Virus record (IMG/VR): IMGVR_UViG_3300031951_000036
Strand: one strand, 5' to 3'
DNA length: 64,000 nucleotides
From: an uncultured virus (IMG/VR IMGVR_UViG_3300031951_000036)
Lineage: Duplodnaviria > Heunggongvirae > Uroviricota > Caudoviricetes
The notes beneath the pieces were generated by a model. The model did no database searches and had not been told where the DNA came from. It worked only from the letters and a program-made list of their open reading frames with translations. Of this stretch, positions 16,879 through 53,163 are shown in pieces. The first letter of the stretch is position 1. The number at the start of each line of letters is the position of its first letter. Both the position numbers and the translations under genes were made by a program.

Positions 16879-16895
16879 ACTTGGTTTTAAAGTAG

Positions 16896-16970
16896 TTGCG
16901 GGGGCAGGGCTCGAACCTGCGTACTTCGGCTTATGAGACCGAGCTGGGACCAACTCCAGTCTACCCCGCC
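16896..16970 (-). tRNA. tRNA-Met(CAT), initiator-like
   Basis: GGCGGGG/CCCCGCA acceptor with 1:72 mismatch; TCGGT-CTCATAA-GCCGA; T arm GCAGG-TTCGAGC-CCTGC. Confidence 0.85.
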
Positions 16971-16979
16971 ATCCAGAGG

Positions 16980-17267
16980 TTACCACACAATGGCCACCTC
17001 ATATTCGTTCAACATCAGGTAATGCTTGTCTTCCAACGGTAACACTTCGCATGACTGCAACGCGCTGCCAGAGATGTACACTTCGTCCCCTGCTTTTACA
17101 CCTTCTACTTCTTCACCAACCGCAGACACTTTAAGACGTGTCCACTTGCTGATGAACTCACGGTCCAGTGCAGCTTGCTGTTCTGGGGTCAACTCAATGG
17201 CTGACTTCGGACGCTCTGGTTTCTCAATAAGAATCCTTCGTCCCTTAAGGGCTTTAAACTCTAGCAT
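16980..17267 (-). CDS. GroES/Cpn10-like co-chaperonin
   Basis: LKGRRILIEK ... VSAVGEEVEGVKAGDEVYI ... YLMLNEYEVAIV. Confidence 0.7.
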   Translation of the reverse strand: MLEFKALKGRRILIEKPERPKSAIELTPEQQAALDREFISKWTRLKVSAVGEEVEGVKAGDEVYISGSALQSCEVLPLEDKHYLMLNEYEVAIVW

Positions 17268-22364: not shown

Positions 22365-22558
22365 TCCGCAACATACAGCGGATAGTGTGTCCTACATGAT
22401 GAGAAACGGGGTGATGCCCGTATGGATTTGCTGACATGACAAGGTTATGTTAGGGTGACAACCTGCCGTTTAGTCTATTCCTAACCCTGACAATCTCTAA
22501 CAGACTGCTGAGACAGGGGACAGCCAGGACGCTTGCAAGTTGGATAGCATAGAGCGTT
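22365..22558 (+). ncRNA. Ornate structured RNA, copy 1
   Basis: Colinear with 40284-40495, with compensatory stem changes and invariant blocks. Confidence 0.75.
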
Positions 22559-22705
22559 ATAATATTAGGCCGTTTGACCCGCATGTGGGGAGGTCAAGAC
22601 TCATAACTGGATATGCTCGGTTATGTCGCGCTGAAGACAGAGCGCAAGGGGGACAGATAAAGTTCCCCCTAAATCTGTCGAAGTTTAACTCTTAATACCA
22701 CAACC

Positions 22706-36110: not shown

Positions 36111-36621
36111 CTATGACAAATATGCTGCTGACCCTGCCAGCTGGATGGTGTTTACAAAAGATAATGCTGAAGTGGTATACTTACTGGAAAGCATAGATGA
36201 AGATGATAACTACCCTCTCAAAGGTGTTTATAAACTGCCAGATGGTTATGCACAGGAAGCTACTTGGGATAAACAAGGACTTTTTGTAACGGACAATCCT
36301 GATAGTGATAGAAATATATCACACATGATTGCTGTTCACAAAGTAAAGCCTGCGGAAACTAAGGTAGTTAGCTCTCTGACACCAAGGTTGCGCAATGTTT
36401 ATTACAACTATGTATCTAAAGCTGTGGAGATTGGTACTAAAACACATGAAACTTGGACAGATGCAATGCTGTCAGCCAATCGTACCATGGCTAACTCAAC
36501 AGCTCTGGAACACTTGTGTGTTGCTACCCTGGAAGACCACCCTCAGATTAAAGAAATCCTGATTGCTAAAGGGTTAGCAGAGGTTGTTGTAAACCCAGAA
36601 CTTAAAGAAATAGATTTATGA
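36091..36621 (+). CDS. Hypothetical protein
   Basis: 176 aa. Confidence 0.55.
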   Translation: MERVPFDYDKYAADPASWMVFTKDNAEVVYLLESIDEDDNYPLKGVYKLPDGYAQEATWDKQGLFVTDNPDSDRNISHMIAVHKVKPAETKVVSSLTPRLRNVYYNYVSKAVEIGTKTHETWTDAMLSANRTMANSTALEHLCVATLEDHPQIKEILIAKGLAEVVVNPELKEIDL

Positions 36622-37013
36622 GCCACCCCTTACACCATGCCCTTTCCAGCCAAAAGAGGTTCGGAGGAAAGTTCACTGACTATTTGAAACTGCACGAGTG
36701 GTTTGACGAGACAAAAGCTCACTACCCTGACATGCGCCACCGTGCGCTACGACACCACTCAGAAGGCATCTTCTGGGCGGAAAAAGAGTTTGGTGTATAC
36801 ATCACCAACTCAGATGGCAAAATGGTTCCCACCCGCGCGGTAGGTGAACAACATGTCCTGGAGGACATTGGGTTTATACCCACAATCAAAGACTACCTAG
36901 ACTGCATGGAGCAGAAAGGGTGGATGTACAAGCCCGGTGAAGGGCGAAAAGTCCTGAAGGAAATTGTCCAGGACAAATCAGACTATGTTCAACCAACAGC
37001 AAAATTACCATGA
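36618..37013 (+). CDS. His-rich conserved protein (DUF6915-like)
   Basis: HPLHHALSS...HEWFD...RHRALRHH..G...EQHVLED. Confidence 0.65.
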   Translation: MSHPLHHALSSQKRFGGKFTDYLKLHEWFDETKAHYPDMRHRALRHHSEGIFWAEKEFGVYITNSDGKMVPTRAVGEQHVLEDIGFIPTIKDYLDCMEQKGWMYKPGEGRKVLKEIVQDKSDYVQPTAKLP

Positions 37014-37711
37014 GTGAAAAAACTTTTACAATCCAGCAGATCATTGACTGGTGTGACAAGATGGCCGCAGAAGGCAAAAATCCTATCCTTAAATGGGAAG
37101 GTGGTGGAGACTCTGGCTGGGTCTATATGGAAGATGAAGATGGAGAGCGTTTTGACGAAGAAAACGAAGCAGAGTGGTTAATCAATGAGATGTATGACCA
37201 GTTGGACTATGGTTCATGGGCAGGTGAGTTCAGTGCTAATGGTGAGGCTATGTACAATTCACACACCAAATGTTTTGAAGGTACTGACTATTACAGCGAG
37301 GAAGAAAGAATATCATGCTCTGCCCAGATTCGCATTGAAATCCCTGCATTTATACCATTTGACCGCCTGGAGATTGAAACAGAAGATGAAACCTTACATG
37401 TCAAATGCGATATAGCGTTGGATAATGGTTATGTGCACCCCGCTTCTCATGATGCTATGACTTCTTTGGAAAAGCAGCTGAAAGACGAGATTGGTGCAGC
37501 TGTAGACAAACACTACGAAGAGAACAAATACGAGAGTGAGTTCAGAGACTTTTACAATCACTATGTGATCGACCGTAATGAGTTCAAGCGTGAGGGTGAC
37601 ATGATGGTACACATCTTAAAAGAAGTTGAATTTAACGTCACCAACACCACAGAGAAAGATATATCCATTGACCTTAAACAATTATTAGAAGATGAAGAGT
37701 ATGACGCTTGA
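37010..37711 (+). CDS. Acidic protein (DUF6878-like N-terminus)
   Basis: WEGGGDSG motif. Confidence 0.55.
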   Translation: MSEKTFTIQQIIDWCDKMAAEGKNPILKWEGGGDSGWVYMEDEDGERFDEENEAEWLINEMYDQLDYGSWAGEFSANGEAMYNSHTKCFEGTDYYSEEERISCSAQIRIEIPAFIPFDRLEIETEDETLHVKCDIALDNGYVHPASHDAMTSLEKQLKDEIGAAVDKHYEENKYESEFRDFYNHYVIDRNEFKREGDMMVHILKEVEFNVTNTTEKDISIDLKQLLEDEEYDA

Positions 37712-38432
37712 TTACACCAAACTGGAGTTTAACATCAATCGCACAGGGGGATTTACTTTTCCCCTGGCGATGAGTATTTGGAAAACACAGTATAAAACCT
37801 TTGACAACTTTGAGCGCACTTTGCGTGGGAACTACGACGGCACAGAGTTCAACGACTACTTTGATGTGGTGCGTGCAGCATGGGATGATGCGGCTGTTTT
37901 GACAGTAGAGCAGGCATTCACTACAAAGAACATTGAACACCGTCGTGTGATCTTTAATGCTATAGGTGTGGAAAATCTAATGGCGAGTCTGAAACCTACA
38001 TTGGTGGACAGACAAACCATCACCCGTGACAACCTTGTGTTTGACAAGGATGGCAAATCACGCACAGAAACCCTGGTGGATACCTATGAGCTTTACCAGA
38101 TTGACGGTGAGCGTTTGTTTGAAGGTACAGAAGCAGCAGAACGCTGGCGATTCCAACGCGATCGCAACATCTATGCAGTAAAATGTAAGGATGCATCTAC
38201 TGACCGCGAGTACTGGATCTATGTGACTGATGAAGCTGCTAGGGGTAAAGATGCTCTTGAAGCCATTGCCTGGACATACATGCTGAAGTCAGGTACAAAA
38301 ACCAATGAAGTCTACCGCCAGGGTGAAGTGATTATTGCCAAGCACGGCAACACTGAAGAACCTAATCACTGGGGCAGAGTGTATCACATGAACAAAGAAG
38401 AGTATCTAACCAAGATCAAAGCGCAGAGCTAA
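37701..38432 (+). CDS. Conserved protein (DUF6745-like)
   Basis: NIEHRRVIFNAIG...AVKC...STDREYWIYV...AIAW...RQGE. Confidence 0.6.
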   Translation: MTLDYTKLEFNINRTGGFTFPLAMSIWKTQYKTFDNFERTLRGNYDGTEFNDYFDVVRAAWDDAAVLTVEQAFTTKNIEHRRVIFNAIGVENLMASLKPTLVDRQTITRDNLVFDKDGKSRTETLVDTYELYQIDGERLFEGTEAAERWRFQRDRNIYAVKCKDASTDREYWIYVTDEAARGKDALEAIAWTYMLKSGTKTNEVYRQGEVIIAKHGNTEEPNHWGRVYHMNKEEYLTKIKAQS

Positions 38433-38710
38433 TGAAAAAGCTATACGAAAACCAAGACAACAAGCTGGCTCTAGCCTTGGGCAGGACCGGCAACGGACAT
38501 GTGCTAAGAAGCATTAGTGGTAAGAAGACCATTGAGTGGACAGAAACCCCTGACCGTCAGATGAATACAGTAGAGTTCAGGCTGACTGAACCTGCTATCC
38601 TGGAACACCCTGAGCACTCTCCCATTGTGCTGGAACCAGGAGTGTACACCCGCACCCTGCAGGTGGAGTTCAATCCTTTTGACAGAAGTGTTAGTTACAT
38701 TTTTGATTAA
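38432..38710 (+). CDS. Small His-containing beta protein
   Basis: TGNGH...LEHPEH.PIVLEPGVY. Confidence 0.6.
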   Translation: MKKLYENQDNKLALALGRTGNGHVLRSISGKKTIEWTETPDRQMNTVEFRLTEPAILEHPEHSPIVLEPGVYTRTLQVEFNPFDRSVSYIFD

Positions 38711-38766
38711 AAATGTTACAACTTTTTGTAGATGTGAAGAGTTCTGTTGTAATATTGTAGACCTCT

Positions 38767-39234
38767 ATGAACACCACACTGAAGCGCGCCCTCTATCTAG
38801 ATGATGTGCGCACCCCAACTGTTACCCTGGAAGGCTTTGCGCCATTTGCAGTGGTAAGAAACTATGACCAATTTGTCGGGCACATCCAGTCTCATGGAGT
38901 GCCTGACCTCATATCCTTTGACCATGACCTGGCTGATGAGCACATGATGGATTACTTTACCCATCAGGCTAATGGCATTGCCGTGGTTGAGTATGATAAG
39001 TTTACTGAGAAGACAGGCCTTGATTGCATCAAGTGGCTGTGTAACTACATCCTTGATGAGCATGAAAAAGGCAATACTATTCCTATGCCTGCTGTGCGCG
39101 TGCATAGCCATAATCCTGTGGGTGGTGCGAACATACATAACTATGCAAATAATTTTTGCGCATCCATGGGTTGGCCTGCTGCTGCTAGTTTTCTGAGAGT
39201 TCCCTTTGAGATAGCAACACAGGTAGACGAATAG
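38767..39234 (+). CDS. Cyclic-phosphate-processing receiver-like domain protein
   Basis: LYLDDVRTP, ISFDHDL, TGLDCIKWL, VHSHNPVG. Confidence 0.7.
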   Translation: MNTTLKRALYLDDVRTPTVTLEGFAPFAVVRNYDQFVGHIQSHGVPDLISFDHDLADEHMMDYFTHQANGIAVVEYDKFTEKTGLDCIKWLCNYILDEHEKGNTIPMPAVRVHSHNPVGGANIHNYANNFCASMGWPAAASFLRVPFEIATQVDE

Positions 39235-39250
39235 GTGTAGCGCTACGCCC

Positions 39251-39324
39251 GCGTCCATAGCTCAATTGGCTAGAGCAGTGGTCTCCAAAACCACAGGTTC
39301 CAGGTTCGAATCCTGGTGGGCGTG
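39251..39324 (+). tRNA. tRNA-Trp(CCA)
   Basis: GTGGT-CTCCAAA-ACCAC anticodon arm; CCAGG-TTCGAAT-CCTGG; G73. Confidence 0.9.
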
Positions 39325-39348
39325 CAACAATGTTCTTTGACAATATAT

Positions 39349-39922
39349 TCTTTCAAGTGTATGATCTAACGTGATCACGCGTGTGCTGGCACATAGACCA
39401 GATGTGGGGAGCGGTTCTCACAGTTCAACGTACTCTTTATCTAGTATGCGCTATATCCGCAGAACCATCATTGAGTGCTTTCCCAGCCGCAGGGTAGAAC
39501 AATCAGCGGTCAGACTTGACAAAACATTTGAAAGATGAAATTAAGGAGTGAGCATAAAAGACCACATGCAGAATGTAACGGCCAGTTTCTAGAGAGCGCC
39601 TATTCACTAGTATGTTTCTGTGCGATTGCATGCAATATCTCCTCAGGTTTATACATGGCTAACAACAATGGTAGAGCTATACCAAAGCTGGTGTGATTAG
39701 CCAGTCGGCTCCACGTGAACGCTAAATTACAGAGATCACAGCCAGAGAAATAACGCGCCCATTGGGAGAACTAAAAGGCGTCTATCTCACGTTGTTACCC
39801 ATGTACAGGCTTACCCGCAATACAGAGTGTCTGTCAGAGTTGCTACTGACAACCCCAGTTGAGGAATACTCTCCGTAAGGACGTCTACTCGGAGTGACGT
39901 ATAGCACTGGGTTCTGTATTGC
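39349..39922 (+). ncRNA. Array of stem-closed structured RNA modules (or one large ncRNA)
   Basis: ORF-free; closing helices of 12 bp, 14/15 bp and 10 bp. Confidence 0.6.
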
Positions 39923-39929
39923 ACACATT

Positions 39930-40051
39930 AGTCAGGTGGCGGAATGGTAGACGCTTCCTTTATCACAAGGAATAATTGGATAGTGATATATCCTAACATA
40001 AAAGATGTTGATGAAAGTCCTTCTTTACAGGTTCGAATCCTGTCCTGACTA
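39930..40051 (+). ncRNA. tRNA-like RNA with anticodon arm replaced by three hairpins
   Basis: AGTCAGG/CCTGACT acceptor, Leu-type D arm, ACAGG-TTCGAAT-CCTGT; loops TATCAC and GTGATA are complementary. Confidence 0.75.
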
Positions 40052-40182
40052 CGAATGTGGTTCGACTCCACTCGTTTACTGAGGTTGTGGTAAGTAGGTG
40101 TGCCAAAGTTCGAGCCTTTGGGTCTAGAAATAGATGATGGTAGACACGAACAGTATGACAGCTTGGAAAGACAAGCAAGCAT

Positions 40183-40278
40183 AGCACAGTGGTGAAATTG
40201 GTTCACACAAGTCAGTGGAGTAATTCCCAACGGTAAAAAAAGATACTTGTGATACAGGTTCAAATCCTGTCTGTGCTA
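40183..40278 (+). ncRNA. tRNA-like RNA with oversized anticodon loop
   Basis: AGCACAG/CTGTGCT acceptor, D arm, ACAAGT/ACTTGT stem enclosing >30 nt, T arm ACAGG-TTCAAAT-CCTGT. Confidence 0.7.
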
Positions 40279-40283
40279 CGGGC

Positions 40284-40495
40284 TCTGCTTCACTTGCAGA
40301 TAATGTGTCCAACATGAACAAACAGGGTAGTGCCTGTATGGAATTGCTGATAGACCAAAGGTCTATTTAGATTGACTATCTACTGAAAGGGGACTAAACA
40401 GTAACCCATCAAGTCTATTCCTAACCTCTGCGTCTAACAGACTGCGGACAAAGAGGGACAACCGCGATATCTGTAGCTGGATAATGCAGGGTATC
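40284..40495 (+). ncRNA. Ornate structured RNA, copy 2
   Basis: Colinear with 22365-22558. Confidence 0.75.
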
Positions 40496-40499
40496 ATTT

Positions 40500-40581
40500 G
40501 GCCATGTGGTGGAATTGGTAGACACACACGTCTCAGAAGCGTGTATCTCACGATGTGCAGGTTCGACTCCTGTCATGGTCA
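40500..40581 (+). tRNA. tRNA-Leu(CAG)
   Basis: GGCCATG/CATGGTC, CACGT-CTCAGAA-GCGTG, variable arm, T arm. Confidence 0.9.
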
Positions 40582-40583
40582 CA

Positions 40584-40817
40584 ATGAAAAAGTGTTTTTA
40601 CTGTGAGCGCAAGCTTCCGCTGTTCATGTACGCATTGAACAGACGGCAGTACCAGCGCCCTGAAGATAAGGGCCGGTGCAAATCATGTCACATCTGCAAC
40701 TACAAGTACTGGTCTGACCAGGGCTTTGCGTGGTTGCTCAATATCAACACGGGAAAGTTTGAACGTGTTGAGTTTAAATCTAAGTTGGACATTATCAGAA
40801 AAATCTTATGGATGTAA
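40584..40817 (+). CDS. Zn-finger protein
   Basis: CFYC ... CHIC; ATG 40584 just after tRNA. Confidence 0.55.
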   Translation: MKKCFYCERKLPLFMYALNRRQYQRPEDKGRCKSCHICNYKYWSDQGFAWLLNINTGKFERVEFKSKLDIIRKILWM

Positions 40818-41371
40818 AAGAGTTTGAGGCTTACCTCACTATAGATGAGCTGGCAAATTTCAAAGCCAATTTGAAAAATGGATGGTTATCAGCAGGTCGT
40901 GATGAACCAATTGACTACAAGCAGTATATCAAAATGACCAATGCATATACAGTTATGACAAGCTCTTTTGTTTGGAACCTTACGCCAGAAGGGTCACGAT
41001 ACTGGTCAGAGATTCATGATCGTTTTACATCACGCAAACCGCTGACCAATAACTTTCTGGCAGGACATGACTACATGATGTTCTTTACCGCTGAACAGTG
41101 GGGTAAGCTTTGCAAGATAGCCATGGAGCATCTTGGCCCTGAAGCATACAGCCGATGGATGTCTAGCAGTCATGCAAGCATTACCAGTTTTATCACAACC
41201 GGCATACCAGCTTCTGAACAATCTAAGTTTACAGGAAATATCCGCACAGCTGACAGTTCTGGTTATCGAATAAACAGAGGGCTTATTGTAAAGCGCGGTG
41301 AGTTTCTGACCAAAGAAAACACACAAGCTTCAAGTTATACATCAACAACACGCATACACGCAGGCCTATGA
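40808..41371 (+). CDS. Hypothetical protein
   Basis: FVWNLTPEGSRYW motif. Confidence 0.55.
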   Translation: MDVKEFEAYLTIDELANFKANLKNGWLSAGRDEPIDYKQYIKMTNAYTVMTSSFVWNLTPEGSRYWSEIHDRFTSRKPLTNNFLAGHDYMMFFTAEQWGKLCKIAMEHLGPEAYSRWMSSSHASITSFITTGIPASEQSKFTGNIRTADSSGYRINRGLIVKRGEFLTKENTQASSYTSTTRIHAGL

Positions 41372-41718
41372 GATTTGTAAAAGGCAAATTAACCAAAACA
41401 TCTGACAATCAATGGGTGTTCATCGCCCGTTTATCTAGTAAGGAAAAATCAAGAGAGCTCAGCAGGGTGCAACACTACCCTATCACACCACTTGATGAAG
41501 AAATAGTCCGTTACCACGCTACTGAATTGAAAGAGCTGGGTATGGAGTATCAAGGAGAGCATTTGAAAGCTGAGCTTAAAGACTATTGGAGCTCACCAGA
41601 AGGTAAGTATTCTGAGCTGCATCCTTCAGAAAGCTTTAGAAAGCTTGCTAACAAGAAAACATTTGCAAAGCTAATTTACCAAGAAGATGAAAGTGAACAT
41701 CAAGAAACTGCATCCTGA
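41368..41718 (+). CDS. Hypothetical protein
   Basis: ATGA overlap. Confidence 0.5.
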   Translation: MRFVKGKLTKTSDNQWVFIARLSSKEKSRELSRVQHYPITPLDEEIVRYHATELKELGMEYQGEHLKAELKDYWSSPEGKYSELHPSESFRKLANKKTFAKLIYQEDESEHQETAS

Positions 41719-42205
41719 TGCAGTTATCCCTGTGTACGCCAAGCCCGGTGACGCAGGATTAGACCTGACCGCTATCTCAAAGCGCGTGGAAACAGGTATT
41801 GACGAGAACGGTGAGTACATCGAGTATGGCACTGGCCTGGCCATTGAGATCCCAGAAGGGTACGTTGGCCTGGTATTTCCCCGCTCATCAGTAAGCAAGA
41901 AGGACCTGTTCCTGGCAAATGCGGTGGGTGTGATTGACTCTGGTTACAGAGGAGAGATCAAGCTTCGCTACAAACTGAAGCAACAGTTTGATGAGCTGAT
42001 AAACTATGAACATCCTACCCGCATGATGTCTGACATCATAGAATATGCGCTGGATGACAGGCAGTACTACGCCAACATTTACGCTGTGGGAGACAAAGTA
42101 GGTCAACTGATCATCATGCCTTATCCCCAGGTAGAACTGGTAGAAGTAAGCGAGCTGGCTTCTTCAGGCCGTGGTGAAGGTGGGTTTGGTTCAACTGGAA
42201 AGTAA
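41687..42205 (+). CDS. dut: dUTPase (trimeric)
   Basis: AGLDL, PRSS, GVIDSGYRGE, RGEGGFGSTG. Confidence 0.95.
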   Translation: MKVNIKKLHPDAVIPVYAKPGDAGLDLTAISKRVETGIDENGEYIEYGTGLAIEIPEGYVGLVFPRSSVSKKDLFLANAVGVIDSGYRGEIKLRYKLKQQFDELINYEHPTRMMSDIIEYALDDRQYYANIYAVGDKVGQLIIMPYPQVELVEVSELASSGRGEGGFGSTGK

Positions 42206-42344
42206 TGAAAGCAACATTAGACTTTAACACTACGCGCTTTGGGGTTTGTCTCTATACCAAGAGACAGCCTCTGAGGGAGCGCTATCGCTACAAGATACTG
42301 CTGCATCTGTTCATCCTAGAAGCGGTCATAAAATTTAACGTACC

Positions 42345-42713
42345 ATGGAAATCAACAAAAGCTCTGGTCAGGTAGAGATCATAGGCCCTCATGGTCGCAT
42401 CTACCTGTACACACATGACCATAAAGAGAGGCTGGTGGCAGATGTCCATGCAGCCATGTACCCCCGCAAGCGCTGGGATGACCCAGATTACCTGGCTAAA
42501 ATTGTGTTCTGTCACATGGTTCCCATAGAGTGCTGGCAGGAAGAGAAAGGTTATGGCATTGGTACACAGCTTTACGCTGACATTGACCTGCTGATTACCC
42601 TAGATACCACCAGGCAACTGGTCACTATTACCTCAGTCCTAGACAAGCACTACCGTTACCAAGGTACATTTGATGAGTTTGTCAACGGTTATACCAAGAG
42701 TGCACAACTTTAA
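42345..42713 (+). CDS. Hypothetical protein
   Basis: IYLYTH...RWDDPDYLAKIVF. Confidence 0.55.
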   Translation: MEINKSSGQVEIIGPHGRIYLYTHDHKERLVADVHAAMYPRKRWDDPDYLAKIVFCHMVPIECWQEEKGYGIGTQLYADIDLLITLDTTRQLVTITSVLDKHYRYQGTFDEFVNGYTKSAQL

Positions 42714-42742
42714 ACTTTGGAAGTTTAAACTCTTTCTGTAGC

Positions 42743-42836
42743 TTTGTGGAGAAGCGTGAGCGATTTGGGGCAGGCCTGTGAAATGCAGTCTGGGCGTGAG
42801 TTCTGACGAGGGTTCGAATCCCTCCAGCTCCACAAA
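42743..42836 (+). other. tRNA/tmRNA-3'-end-like sequence; candidate att site
   Basis: GACGAGGGTTCGAATCCCTCCAGCTCCA (42805-42832) about 150 bp upstream of the integrase; TTTGTGGAG/CTCCACAAA stem. Confidence 0.65.
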
Positions 42837-42986
42837 GTCTGTGTAACACATTGATTATCAATGCCTGTTCCTTGCGTAACATGCGTAAAACAGGCATTTT
42901 TAGTGTGGTAAATCGTGAGTGATTTACACCTACACAAAACTGTTCAAAAAACGCATCCACGCTATCATAGGTATAAAATCCTTTAT

Positions 42987-44162
42987 ATGATAGTATCTTT
43001 CTTCACAAGACCCGGCAGGCGGGGTGTGCGCTTCCTGTATTGCCGGTTAACCACCCAGCAAAAATGCGCAGAAATCAAGCTCAACTACATTGTTACAGGC
43101 AGTGACAGGAAAGTGGATGCTTACAAGAAGCAGGTAGAAGACCAGATTGCTGAGCTCTACAACCACCAACTGATCAAAGAAAAGCCAGCGGATCCCCAGA
43201 CCATTAAGACCCTGTTCCAAACCAAAACCAAGGCGTACTTCCTGCTGGATACGTTCAAGGACTTTATTGACAGGCGGATTAAACCCAGGGTAGATAAGAA
43301 AGACCTGGGCAAAGGTAGCCTTCAGAAGTATACCTGCGTCTATGAACACCTCAAGGATTTCACAAATGCCCGTGGGCGTACAGACGTACCCTGGCAAATG
43401 GTGGATGATACCTTTGTAGAAGAGTTTGATGAGTACCTCAGACAGTTCAACTCCCACAACACGGTAATGAAGAGCCTGTACAAGTTCAAGACCGTGGTCA
43501 CCTATGCCCTGAAGGTCAAAAAGTACATTACAGAAGACCCTTTTGCTACCAAGTCATTGACACTGAAGAAGGTGTTTCCCATTGCCCTGACCCAGACTGA
43601 GCTCCAGATGCTGATCAAAAAGCGCATGGACGTTGAACGGCTGGAACAGGTAAAGGACTTGTTTCTTTTCCAGTGTTTTAGCGGTTTGTCTTATGCAGAC
43701 ATGCGCAAACTGAAACAGGCGTATATCAGTGACCAAATCATCAACACCAACCGTCAGAAGAACGGTGAGCCTGCTATAGCGTATATGTACCAACTCGCTG
43801 AAATGATACTAAAAAAGCATGAAAACAGGCTTCCCATAGTGTCAAATCAAAAAATGAACGCATATCTTAAAGAAATTGCTGACATTTGCAACATTAGTAA
43901 ACGGTTAACTACACACGTGGCAAGACACACGTATGCTACAACAGTTAATTTAAAGAACGGTGTATCTTTACAAACCGTTCAAAAGTTGCTTGGTCACGCA
44001 ACGATTAAACAAACAGAACATTACGCGCGTTTGGACGACAGTGATGTAAAAAATGTGTGCAAACGAGCAAGCAGGAAAGTAAACAAACTATATAACTTAC
44101 CTGAACAGTTAAGTTTTTTTGACAAACAAAAGCAAGAAAATGGCGAAGAAAAAGCTCACTGA
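42987..44162 (+). CDS. int: Tyrosine integrase, Bacteroidota IntDOT-like
   Basis: FQCFSGLSYAD (Ser at first Arg position), RQK, SNQKMNAYLKEI, HVARHT, LLGH, TEHY. Confidence 0.92.
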   Translation: MIVSFFTRPGRRGVRFLYCRLTTQQKCAEIKLNYIVTGSDRKVDAYKKQVEDQIAELYNHQLIKEKPADPQTIKTLFQTKTKAYFLLDTFKDFIDRRIKPRVDKKDLGKGSLQKYTCVYEHLKDFTNARGRTDVPWQMVDDTFVEEFDEYLRQFNSHNTVMKSLYKFKTVVTYALKVKKYITEDPFATKSLTLKKVFPIALTQTELQMLIKKRMDVERLEQVKDLFLFQCFSGLSYADMRKLKQAYISDQIINTNRQKNGEPAIAYMYQLAEMILKKHENRLPIVSNQKMNAYLKEIADICNISKRLTTHVARHTYATTVNLKNGVSLQTVQKLLGHATIKQTEHYARLDDSDVKNVCKRASRKVNKLYNLPEQLSFFDKQKQENGEEKAH

Positions 44163-45662: not shown

Positions 45663-46793
45663 ATGACAGAAACTGGATTATCCAAACGTGAGATAATCCA
45701 GCAGGAAGCGCTCAAAGCTACAGTAGGTAAATACCGCTGCGGCCTCGCTGTCTCTATGGGTGTGGGTAAAACATACATCGGTTTGCAACACATGCACCGT
45801 GAGTATAACTATGCCCAGCAGATGGGCACCACGCCCAAGTTTTTGGTGGTCGCTCCCAAAGTCGCGATCTTCCAAAGCTGGAAAGACGATGCTGAAAAAT
45901 TTGACCTGGCATACCTGCTGGATTATGTGGAGTTTACCACATACTTATCGCTGTCCAAACAGCCCAATGACTATTCCTGTATCTACCTGGACGAATGTCA
46001 CAGTTTACTATACAGCCATGAGTTTTTCCTGGGGACTTACCCAGGACAAATCTTGGGACTGACGGGTACACCGCCCCGCTACAAGAACTCTGAGAAGGGT
46101 GAAATGGTTCGCCAGTTCTGCCCAATTGTGTATTCCTACATCACAGACGATGCAGTAGAAGACAAGATTCTCAATGACTACAAGATTGTGGTGCACCAGC
46201 TGGAGCTGAGCACGCAGAAAAATTACATGGTAAAGCTGAAGAACGGAGGCCAATTTGCAACCTCTGAACGCGAGCACTACATGTACTGGACCAGCCGCAT
46301 CAATAACACCACCAACTTTGCGCAGCAGAAGATCTTCCGCATCATGCGTATGAAAGCCATGATGGAGTACAAGACCAAAGAGCACTACGCCAAGAACATG
46401 CTGGACATGATCCATGAGAAGTGCATCGTGTTTTGTAATACCACAGAGCAAGCTGACCGCATCTGCCGGGACAGCTACCACAGCAAGAACCCGGACAGTG
46501 AGGAGAACCTGTTGGCATTCAAGAACGGTGACATTGACCAGCTGAGTTGTGTATTGCAGTTGAATGAAGGTGTGAACATCCCTAACCTAAAGGCAGGTAT
46601 CATCCTGCACGCATACAGCAATGAACGCAAAAGCGCTCAGCGGATTGGTCGTTTGCTGCGACTTAATCCAGATGACAAAGCTGTGATTCACATTCTGATG
46701 TATCGTGATACGCAAGATGAACAGTGGGTACAGGAAGCACTGAAGGACCTTGATCCAGAAAAGATCAGTTACACGTACTCTATGATCGATTGA
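45663..46793 (+). CDS. Superfamily 2 helicase
   Basis: MGVGKT, DECH, LGLTGTP, NEGVNIP, QRIGRLLR. Confidence 0.9.
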   Translation: MTETGLSKREIIQQEALKATVGKYRCGLAVSMGVGKTYIGLQHMHREYNYAQQMGTTPKFLVVAPKVAIFQSWKDDAEKFDLAYLLDYVEFTTYLSLSKQPNDYSCIYLDECHSLLYSHEFFLGTYPGQILGLTGTPPRYKNSEKGEMVRQFCPIVYSYITDDAVEDKILNDYKIVVHQLELSTQKNYMVKLKNGGQFATSEREHYMYWTSRINNTTNFAQQKIFRIMRMKAMMEYKTKEHYAKNMLDMIHEKCIVFCNTTEQADRICRDSYHSKNPDSEENLLAFKNGDIDQLSCVLQLNEGVNIPNLKAGIILHAYSNERKSAQRIGRLLRLNPDDKAVIHILMYRDTQDEQWVQEALKDLDPEKISYTYSMID

Positions 46794-52707: not shown

Positions 52708-53163
52708 ATGAACAACTGGATCTATGTACCTACCGGTGAAGAAGTCACCAAGGTGCAACACCTTCCCAACCATGAAGCCATTGTCGGCTTTGTCTACAAA
52801 ATAACCAATCTCAAGACTGGTAAATTTTACATCGGGCAGAAAAGCCTGTATCACGCACGCAAGAAAAAAGTCTCAGTTACTGAGAAGCGTCTCACAGGAA
52901 CCCGCAAGAAGTTCCGCATAGAGATGAAAGAGTCTGACTGGGCATTGTACCACGGTTCTTCCAAGGACCTGACATCAGACATCAGTAAGCTGGGTAACAA
53001 GTATTTTAAGCGTGAAATCCTGGAGCTGTGTTGCTCCAAAAAATACCTGTCATATTGCGAGCTGTCATGGCAGGTCAAGCTAGACGTCTTGAAATGCAAC
53101 AGCTACAACGGTAACATCCTTGGCCGTTACTTCCACAGGGATATGGAAAACTGTAAAAATTAG
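52708..53163 (+). CDS. GIY-YIG endonuclease-like protein
   Basis: GFVYKITNLKTGKFYIGQK ... FKREIL ... YNGNI. Confidence 0.75.
   Translation: MNNWIYVPTGEEVTKVQHLPNHEAIVGFVYKITNLKTGKFYIGQKSLYHARKKKVSVTEKRLTGTRKKFRIEMKESDWALYHGSSKDLTSDISKLGNKYFKREILELCCSKKYLSYCELSWQVKLDVLKCNSYNGNILGRYFHRDMENCKN

Follow-up and report, generated by a model that had tools for sequence, protein, structure and literature searches.

What is encoded between the tRNA genes of a large tailed phage, in a stretch that can be folded into a row of units, each closed by its own helix? The stretch lies in 64,000 nucleotides of DNA from an uncultured virus (IMG/VR record IMGVR_UViG_3300031951_000036), hereafter called the window, for which a preliminary description had offered two answers side by side, a set of distinct non-coding RNAs or a single large RNA. 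The answer favoured here, with moderate confidence, is that window 39344-39928 is a head-to-tail array of four independently folding, stem-closed RNAs, which would be made with the tRNAs as small stable RNAs and of which the last, unit 3, would form a homodimer through a kissing loop. The genes that frame the array and its four units are as follows.

38767-39234, directly upstream of the array: cREC_REC gene (PF20274; Pfam 66.5 bits, E 3.5e-18)
39251-39325, plus strand: tRNA-Trp(CCA), found by ARAGORN (Rfam tRNA 68 bits), the upstream boundary of the array
39326-39929, plus strand: the stretch under study, between tRNA genes
39349-39535, plus strand: unit 1, about 187 nt, multi-branched, closed by 39349-39360/39524-39535
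39544-39643, plus strand: unit W, about 100 nt, closed by an invariant AGGAG/CUCCU helix (helices 2-4 of RNAalifold)
39645-39811, plus strand: unit 2, about 167 nt, multi-branched, with an interrupted closing helix of 20 pairs that includes 39652-39666/39791-39805
39817-39922, plus strand: unit 3, a 106-nt three-way-junction RNA
40500-40582, plus strand: tRNA-Leu(CAG), downstream of the array

The window is part of the genome of a large tailed phage, with PHROG family matches for the major head protein, the large terminase and the portal, of which the last is closest to that of a Leptolyngbya phage (31.7% identity), with crAss-like phages next. The DNA runs that contain the region mostly carry freshwater metagenome labels, and the phage is regarded here as a crAss-like one from fresh water. 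The nearest record, G001, is the same phage (99.99% identity) and spans window positions 1-23956 only, so that it supplies no second copy of the array, and a collection of phage GenBank records gave a tRNA as the sole match to the region. Elsewhere, at 42915-44162 and 52708-53163, the window carries a tyrosine integrase (Phage_integrase and SAM-like domains) and a SegE-like GIY-YIG homing endonuclease. Between 39235 and 40800 there is no conserved ORF; this interval consists of tRNA-Trp, the array stretch, aberrant tRNA-like genes, a structured stretch and tRNA-Leu. The tRNA-Trp upstream and the tRNA-like genes and tRNA-Leu downstream are all on the plus strand, and the array is thus encoded among co-oriented phage tRNA genes, the setting of stable RNAs of the T4 RNA C/D type. 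Among relatives (designated L with a number), tRNA-Trp precedes the array in L004, L011, L016 and L019, as in the window, and is missing in L007. The cREC_REC domain is predicted by those who described it to process RNA ends with a 2′,3′-cyclic phosphate, and is linked there with RNA ligases (PMC7824862). Its gene adjoins the array in L004, L007 and L016 and is missing in L011, so that its link to the array is loose; no homologue of RNA ligase, Ro or RtcB was found among the 47 window ORFs scanned against Pfam.

The stretch had been called ORF-free, which holds for ORFs of at least 60 amino acids and not for shorter ones: ORFs of 38-55 amino acids exist in the window, though in relatives they are interrupted by stop codons or by frame-shifting changes of length. 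A small-protein reading of the region is rejected on this ground and, judged from its sequence, the region is non-coding. All three long closing helices placed here by the preliminary description were recovered as inverted repeats.

39342-39360/39524-39542, plus strand: inverted repeat I1, closing unit 1, 19 nt, 79% complementary
39652-39666/39791-39805, plus strand: inverted repeat I2, closing unit 2, 14/15 complementary
39817-39826/39913-39922, plus strand: inverted repeat I7, closing unit 3, 10/10 complementary

The core of I1 (39349-39362/39522-39535) has 13 pairs and one mismatch when G-U is counted. A weaker unit suspected at about 39543-39643 is present as well, closed by AGGAG at 39544-39548 and CTCCT at 39639-39643, and is unit W of the list above. 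In the window sequence alone, such helices are modestly beyond chance. At least three helices of at least 13 pairs were found in 70 of 500 dinucleotide shuffles and at least four in 26 of 500, and if the cut is relaxed to 10 pairs, the region can no longer be told from its shuffles. The minimum free energy (MFE) of the whole region corresponds to z = -2.25 on the plus strand and -1.21 on the minus strand (20 shuffles each). Taken singly, unit 2 (z -3.98, 0/200 shuffles as stable) and unit 3 (z -2.91, 1/200) are more stable than nearly all of their shuffles, unit 1 is marginal (z -1.50, 11/200), and unit W is not above shuffled stability (z +1.02, 169/200).

With statistics of this modest kind, the helices might be taken for decayed remnants (pseudo-tRNAs, or debris of introns or mobile elements), DNA-level signals or chance hairpins, and the neighbourhood is indeed full of aberrant tRNA-like genes. 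No match to a tRNA or a group I intron was found inside the units, however. As to tRNA (RF00005), the genes found by ARAGORN and Rfam all lie outside 39326-39929, the closing helices are 10-20 bp long, and no GTTCRANYC T-loop occurs within. As to group I introns (RF00028), there is no Rfam match, the units lie between genes, and tRNA-Trp is intact. Further arguments against remnants or chance are the compensatory changes and the strand-specific G-U pairs seen in 7-16 sequences, namely the seven arrays and 16 distinct copies of unit 3 described below, and we consider this explanation highly improbable.

Relatives were reached through the protein encoded upstream and by scans of viral and metagenome contigs for conserved motifs; the route through the downstream protein found no relatives. 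After duplicates and chance matches had been left out, seven distinct arrays were available (the window, L004, L007, L011, L016, L019 and L022), with an array identity of 73-89% among relatives. The chance matches of the pattern scans were L010 and six of the eleven metagenome loci (L014, L015, L017, L021, L023 and L024). A scan of bacterial and archaeal genomes with one pattern yielded 56 loci, all dropped as chance, and thus no prophage copy or clue to the host, and a scan for unit 2 returned known carriers only.

RNAalifold folded the seven array sequences into 80 pairs, 12 of which carry compensatory changes with both sides altered. In this alignment 97.3% of the pair cells are paired, compared with 33-40% in controls with the 3′ partners slid by 1-3 columns, with the reservation that such counts are flattered by structures derived from the same sequences that are counted. 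Several G-U pairs are invariant in all seven arrays (for example columns 333-517, 335-515, 336-514 and 366-395), and since an invariant G-U pair would be an A-C mismatch on the other strand, the RNA is placed on the plus strand, as are the tRNAs. Covariation among homologues, a check proposed in the preliminary description, therefore gives conserved folds with compensatory changes in alignments of 5-16 sequences, which are shallow and represent about two to four clades. On these comparative data the closing helices are considered established as real.

Each of the first three units contributes to this picture in its own manner. The interior of unit 1 holds four hairpins, including CUGR..YCAG and a loop in CCCAGCCGCAGGG; its alignment (A4, n=5) has 48 pairs, of which 8 are altered on both sides, and a paired fraction of 95.8% of cells (41-51% in the slid controls). 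The closing helix of unit W shows no variation among the seven arrays, and 85-88% of the cells of its inner helices pair; of the 10 pairs in these, 5 are altered on both sides (n=7). Helices 5-9, which belong to unit 2, are 96-100% paired in the seven sequences and have compensatory changes at two pairs; a variable inner hairpin of this unit keeps its pairing while its sequence shifts.

Unit 3 is the best sampled of the four, and its parts are the following.

39817-39826/39913-39922, plus strand: helix P1, 10 bp
39832-39837/39846-39851, plus strand: helix P2
39854-39858/39907-39911, plus strand: helix P3, 5 bp
39871-39875/39890-39894, plus strand: helix P4, 5 bp
39880-39885, plus strand: six-base palindrome GACGTC in the middle of the P4 loop (14 nt), a candidate kissing-loop dimerisation site

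P3 leads to P4 through a large conserved internal loop, and the P2 hairpin loop is GUAGCU in 15 of 16 sequences, the window having GUUGCU. These 16 distinct sequences are what remained of motif scans after a motif check and a covariance model, R1, had been applied: in the first scan 25 of 33 loci were dropped for lack of a 5′ arm, by the motif check alone, and in the second 16 of 31 were dropped as unmatched by R1. Their alignment (A6) has 99.1% of cells paired, a figure that falls to 32-48% in the slid controls, and of the 29 pairs tested 15 are altered on both sides; the scan patterns consisted of the 3′ strand of P1/P3 and the P2-loop/P3 motifs, and the conservation of those parts is therefore partly built in. 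R1 finds exactly one copy in each of the five phage records searched whole, including a complete genome of 125.8 kb, and one in the window, where a second, weak match at 46432-46560 (16.2 bits, E 0.14) was disregarded.

The composition of the array differs among its carriers. Unit 1, including both arms of its helix, is missing in two of the seven arrays (L011 and L016), in which the trailer of tRNA-Trp runs directly into W. In one of the seven (L007), some 150 nt unrecognised by R1 stand in place of unit 3, and this replacement module recurs beside unit 3 in L131 at 95% identity. W and unit 2 occur together in all seven. Units that are gained, lost and swapped among relatives favour distinct modules over one indivisible RNA, so that the first of the two answers originally offered is the one supported. 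Stem-closed modules other than the four units were also seen in this phage group: the replacement module occupies L007 1887-1990 and L131 366-468, and a module of about 110 nt with a 10-bp closing helix lies downstream of unit 3 at L046 1211-1322.

It could still be asked whether a single transcript, comparable to ROOL and GOLLD but smaller, has W, unit 2 and unit 3 as its domains, with a length of about 385 nt, which unit 1 would raise to about 580 nt. These three units are contiguous in six of the seven arrays with linkers of 0-10 nt, the pair of W and unit 2 is never broken, and the total size is near that of ROOL (about 580 nt). Further, no convincing promoter or terminator lies between units, and an RNA-library contig (X9) spans 39543-39881 without a break, which takes in W, unit 2 and part of unit 3. 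Contigs are not to be equated with transcripts, however, and the search for covarying stacks between units gave a single stack of four pairs, of the kind expected as an artefact of two-clade sampling. Besides, unit 1 is dispensable, an unrelated module takes the place of unit 3 in L007, and 10 distinct lineages have unit 3 by itself, in some cases with a protein gene immediately on either side. A single large RNA thus seems to us unlikely, and an array of distinct RNAs is preferred.

Contigs of four metatranscriptome runs match parts of the region and, compared with 36500-43500, cover the array; these are Logan assembled contigs, in which ends, strand and level are unreadable and DNA carry-over is possible. 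In run X16 the exact-match contigs listed are confined to 39359-40388 and none covers the coding bins on either side, although contig non-coverage proves nothing. Among the contigs listed, short ones (241-304 nt) containing the 3′ half of a unit 3 of the L046 type reach word depths of 150-513 in three runs, whereas the others are at 2-22; because contig depths cannot rank genes, this is a hint at most. A consensus scan marked one candidate promoter.

39337-39365, plus strand: promoter-like TTGACA-17-TATGAT (11/12), overlapping the 5′ arm of the closing helix of unit 1

The number of promoter-like sites in the region equals the shuffle expectation, and at this site TTGACA is kept in six of the seven arrays, while the second hexamer and the spacing are not. 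If used, this promoter would give transcripts that lack the 5′ arm of the unit 1 closing helix.

Outside the arrays, 10 distinct copies of unit 3 stand alone, with no W, unit 2 or tRNAs nearby, and nine of these start 3-5 nt past the stop codon of a common conserved ORF of 92 amino acids. This ORF belongs to no recognised family, its GroES-like matches being all sub-threshold. In L141 the next protein gene follows unit 3 directly, so that unit 3 lies between two protein genes. The window has a homologue of the 92-amino-acid ORF at 16983-17258 on the minus strand, and there the slot past the stop codon is occupied by a tRNA-Met, the ORF and the tRNA gene together lying in window 16895-17258. 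One and the same slot can thus be filled by unit 3 or by a tRNA gene, an alternation that bears on how phages recruit the tRNA-processing machinery of the host for other RNAs.

The same position past a stop codon, and that of the array of L007 directly after a protein gene, would suit cis-acting elements devoid of a function in trans, which protect 3′ ends or serve as processing punctuation for neighbouring mRNAs and tRNAs. Their terminal helices, which are long, G-C-poor and followed by a U-run in L022 only, would also be in accord with such a role. Mere stabilisers, however, need no conserved junctions and loops, such as the P2 loop kept in 15 of 16 sequences, the conserved bases of the internal loop or a palindrome with three alleles, and known 3′ protective hairpins are much simpler than multi-branched folds of 100-190 nt. 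A purely cis-acting role therefore appears decidedly unlikely, and the units are regarded in what follows as RNAs in their own right.

The P4 loop of unit 3 carries the palindrome listed above. It occupies fixed columns in all 16 sequences, as GACGTC in five, TGCGCA in five and TGTACA in six. When it is treated as three symmetric pairs, all three are altered on both sides and all 48 cells pair. L137 and L143 differ at all six bases of the palindrome and at only 2 of the 105 positions outside it; the same whole-palindrome swap separates L046 from L029, L026 and L146, with 7-8 other positions differing, which makes at least two such swaps between near-identical backbones. A self-complementary stretch of at least six nucleotides is thus held in a hairpin loop and kept through sequence change, as in RNAs that form kissing-loop homodimers. 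The four bases on each side are not mutually complementary; hence the palindrome is no simple extension of P4, and the DNA is not one long palindrome. All three alleles are typical restriction-site-like hexamers, which would fit a DNA-level signal or remnant, whereas the non-complementary flanks do not.

Pairing within one molecule was considered as well. In eight of the 16 sequences, five bases of the palindrome recur just 3′ of P4, and the MFE fold of the window unit 3 adopts the pairing with this repeat instead of P4. The other eight, including all six carriers of TGTACA, have no such repeat, and a pseudoknot of the P4 loop with the adjoining 3′ sequence of the same molecule is rejected as a conserved feature; intramolecular pairing of this loop could act as a switch in some lineages. 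If two copies make an intermolecular kissing contact, their loop is expected to remain self-complementary even when its sequence is replaced as a whole, as it does here, and we infer that unit 3 would dimerise in this way through its P4 palindrome.

Several other unusual RNAs are encoded downstream of the array and in its relatives. A tRNA-like family, found at window 39930-40055, L004 7391-7993 (and 7140-7290) and L007 1985-2105, shares a D arm of Leu type and, without any difference among its members, the T arm and acceptor 3′ end (CCTGTCCTGAC), whereas the middle parts are quite unlike one another; there are four copies and a variant in L004 and one copy each in the window and L007. The window copy, with an "anticodon" loop of 6 or 8 nt containing UCA and about 56 extra nucleotides, is missed by the Rfam tRNA model. 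Window 40183-40278 and L011 1880-1969 do score as tRNAs (48.9 and 44.3 bits), and in both about 31 nt replace the 7-nt anticodon loop, an insert too short for a group I intron and with no evident U33-anticodon pattern. Between these lies a conserved stretch of 127 nt (window 40056-40182 and L004 7994-8120, 85% identity), in which two hairpins resemble T arms (GTGGTTCGACTCCAC and CCAAAGTTCGAGCCTTTGG) and a further piece resembles a D arm; it has no cloverleaf and may be a rearranged or composite tRNA-like RNA. Finally, a stem-closed structured RNA of about 200 nt is found directly upstream of tRNA-Leu at window 40290-40499 and also at L011 1981-2172; it has a paralogue with about 80% identity 18 kb away, at window 22368-22565. 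RNAalifold gives this family (n=3) 45 pairs, 11 of them with compensatory changes, and it has no Rfam match at gathering score.

How the array might work can be outlined as follows. First, it would be transcribed together with the tRNAs. Second, the terminal helices of 10-20 bp and the spacers of 0-10 nt would let nucleases of the tRNA-processing type release each unit and protect it, by analogy with T4. Third, unit 3 would pair with a second copy of itself through the P4 palindrome and so become a small self-assembling RNA, as the much larger ROOL and GOLLD RNAs and manA are. What such an assembly does in infection can be guessed at: it may be a scaffold, or a decoy that binds a host or phage factor. 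A bolder proposal, which we put forward as speculation and hold to be fairly unlikely, is that unit 3 is a minimal self-assembling RNA of 106 nt whose partner is set by a swappable six-base "address", the alleles preventing cross-pairing between the RNAs of co-infecting strains; with its cassette-exchanged neighbours it would form an RNA-only or RNA-scaffolded complex needed in infection, and the tRNA island would be a launch pad for shuffled structural RNAs.

Comparison with catalogued RNAs bears out the initial impression that the array was not recognisable, since the proposed cmscan search against Rfam gave no match inside the units: none at gathering score in the window, none at E<=10 in 39000-41000, and none at E<=1 for the units of L004 and nine other relatives. 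The covariance models of ROOL (RF03087), GOLLD (RF01998) and manA (RF01745) match neither the window nor these ten relatives, and the array is therefore rejected as a member of the GOLLD or ROOL family. The literature searched on structured RNAs of crAss-like phages and on the "species 1 RNA" of T4 yielded no paper on this RNA family. The units of the array are uncatalogued families of phage structured RNA, and the nearest known RNAs (ROOL/GOLLD, manA and the RNAs of the T4 tRNA cluster) would be functional analogues only.

The tRNA cluster of T4 encodes RNA C and RNA D ("species 1 and 2"), stable RNAs of about 120-140 nt that are matured from tRNA precursors. The units resemble them in being encoded among phage tRNA genes, a likeness of setting. 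The pRNA of phi29 (RF00044) is another phage RNA of about 120 nt, with paired 5′ and 3′ ends, a three-way junction and loop-loop contacts between copies; its loops pair with a different loop and so form rings, whereas the palindrome of unit 3 would pair with itself. The pRNA model has no match in the Rfam searches of the window, and crAss-like phages are not known to require a pRNA. The dimerisation initiation site of HIV-1 is a hairpin loop with a six-base self-complementary sequence, unpaired flanking purines and palindromes that vary among strains. Its likeness to unit 3 is in the palindrome alleles of the loop and implies no homology, as it belongs to a viral RNA genome and unit 3 to a non-coding RNA of a DNA phage.

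The manA RNAs are cyanophage RNAs of less than 200 nt that assemble through intermolecular kissing loops, and kissing-loop assembly of a short phage RNA, known for manA and proposed for unit 3, is what they share (bioRxiv 10.64898/2026.07.01.735769). The manA contacts described there join different loops (L5-L7′ and L8-L9′) and give pentamers and cages, whereas one palindromic loop of unit 3 would pair with itself (bioRxiv 10.64898/2026.07.01.735769). ROOL and GOLLD are, like the array, non-coding, highly branched and found in phages or prophages, often near tRNA islands; GOLLD often exceeds 800 nt, and kissing loops help to hold together their homo-oligomers (PMC12286853). Both have recently been shown to build RNA-only cages. 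The array differs from them in having no match in sequence or structure, in its evolutionarily separable units of 100-190 nt and in the single self-complementary loop seen, from which a dimer and not a cage is predicted. Compared with ROOL and GOLLD, the array is a smaller and more tractable system, made of short cassettes of which one, of 106 nt, carries a naturally varied putative dimerisation code.
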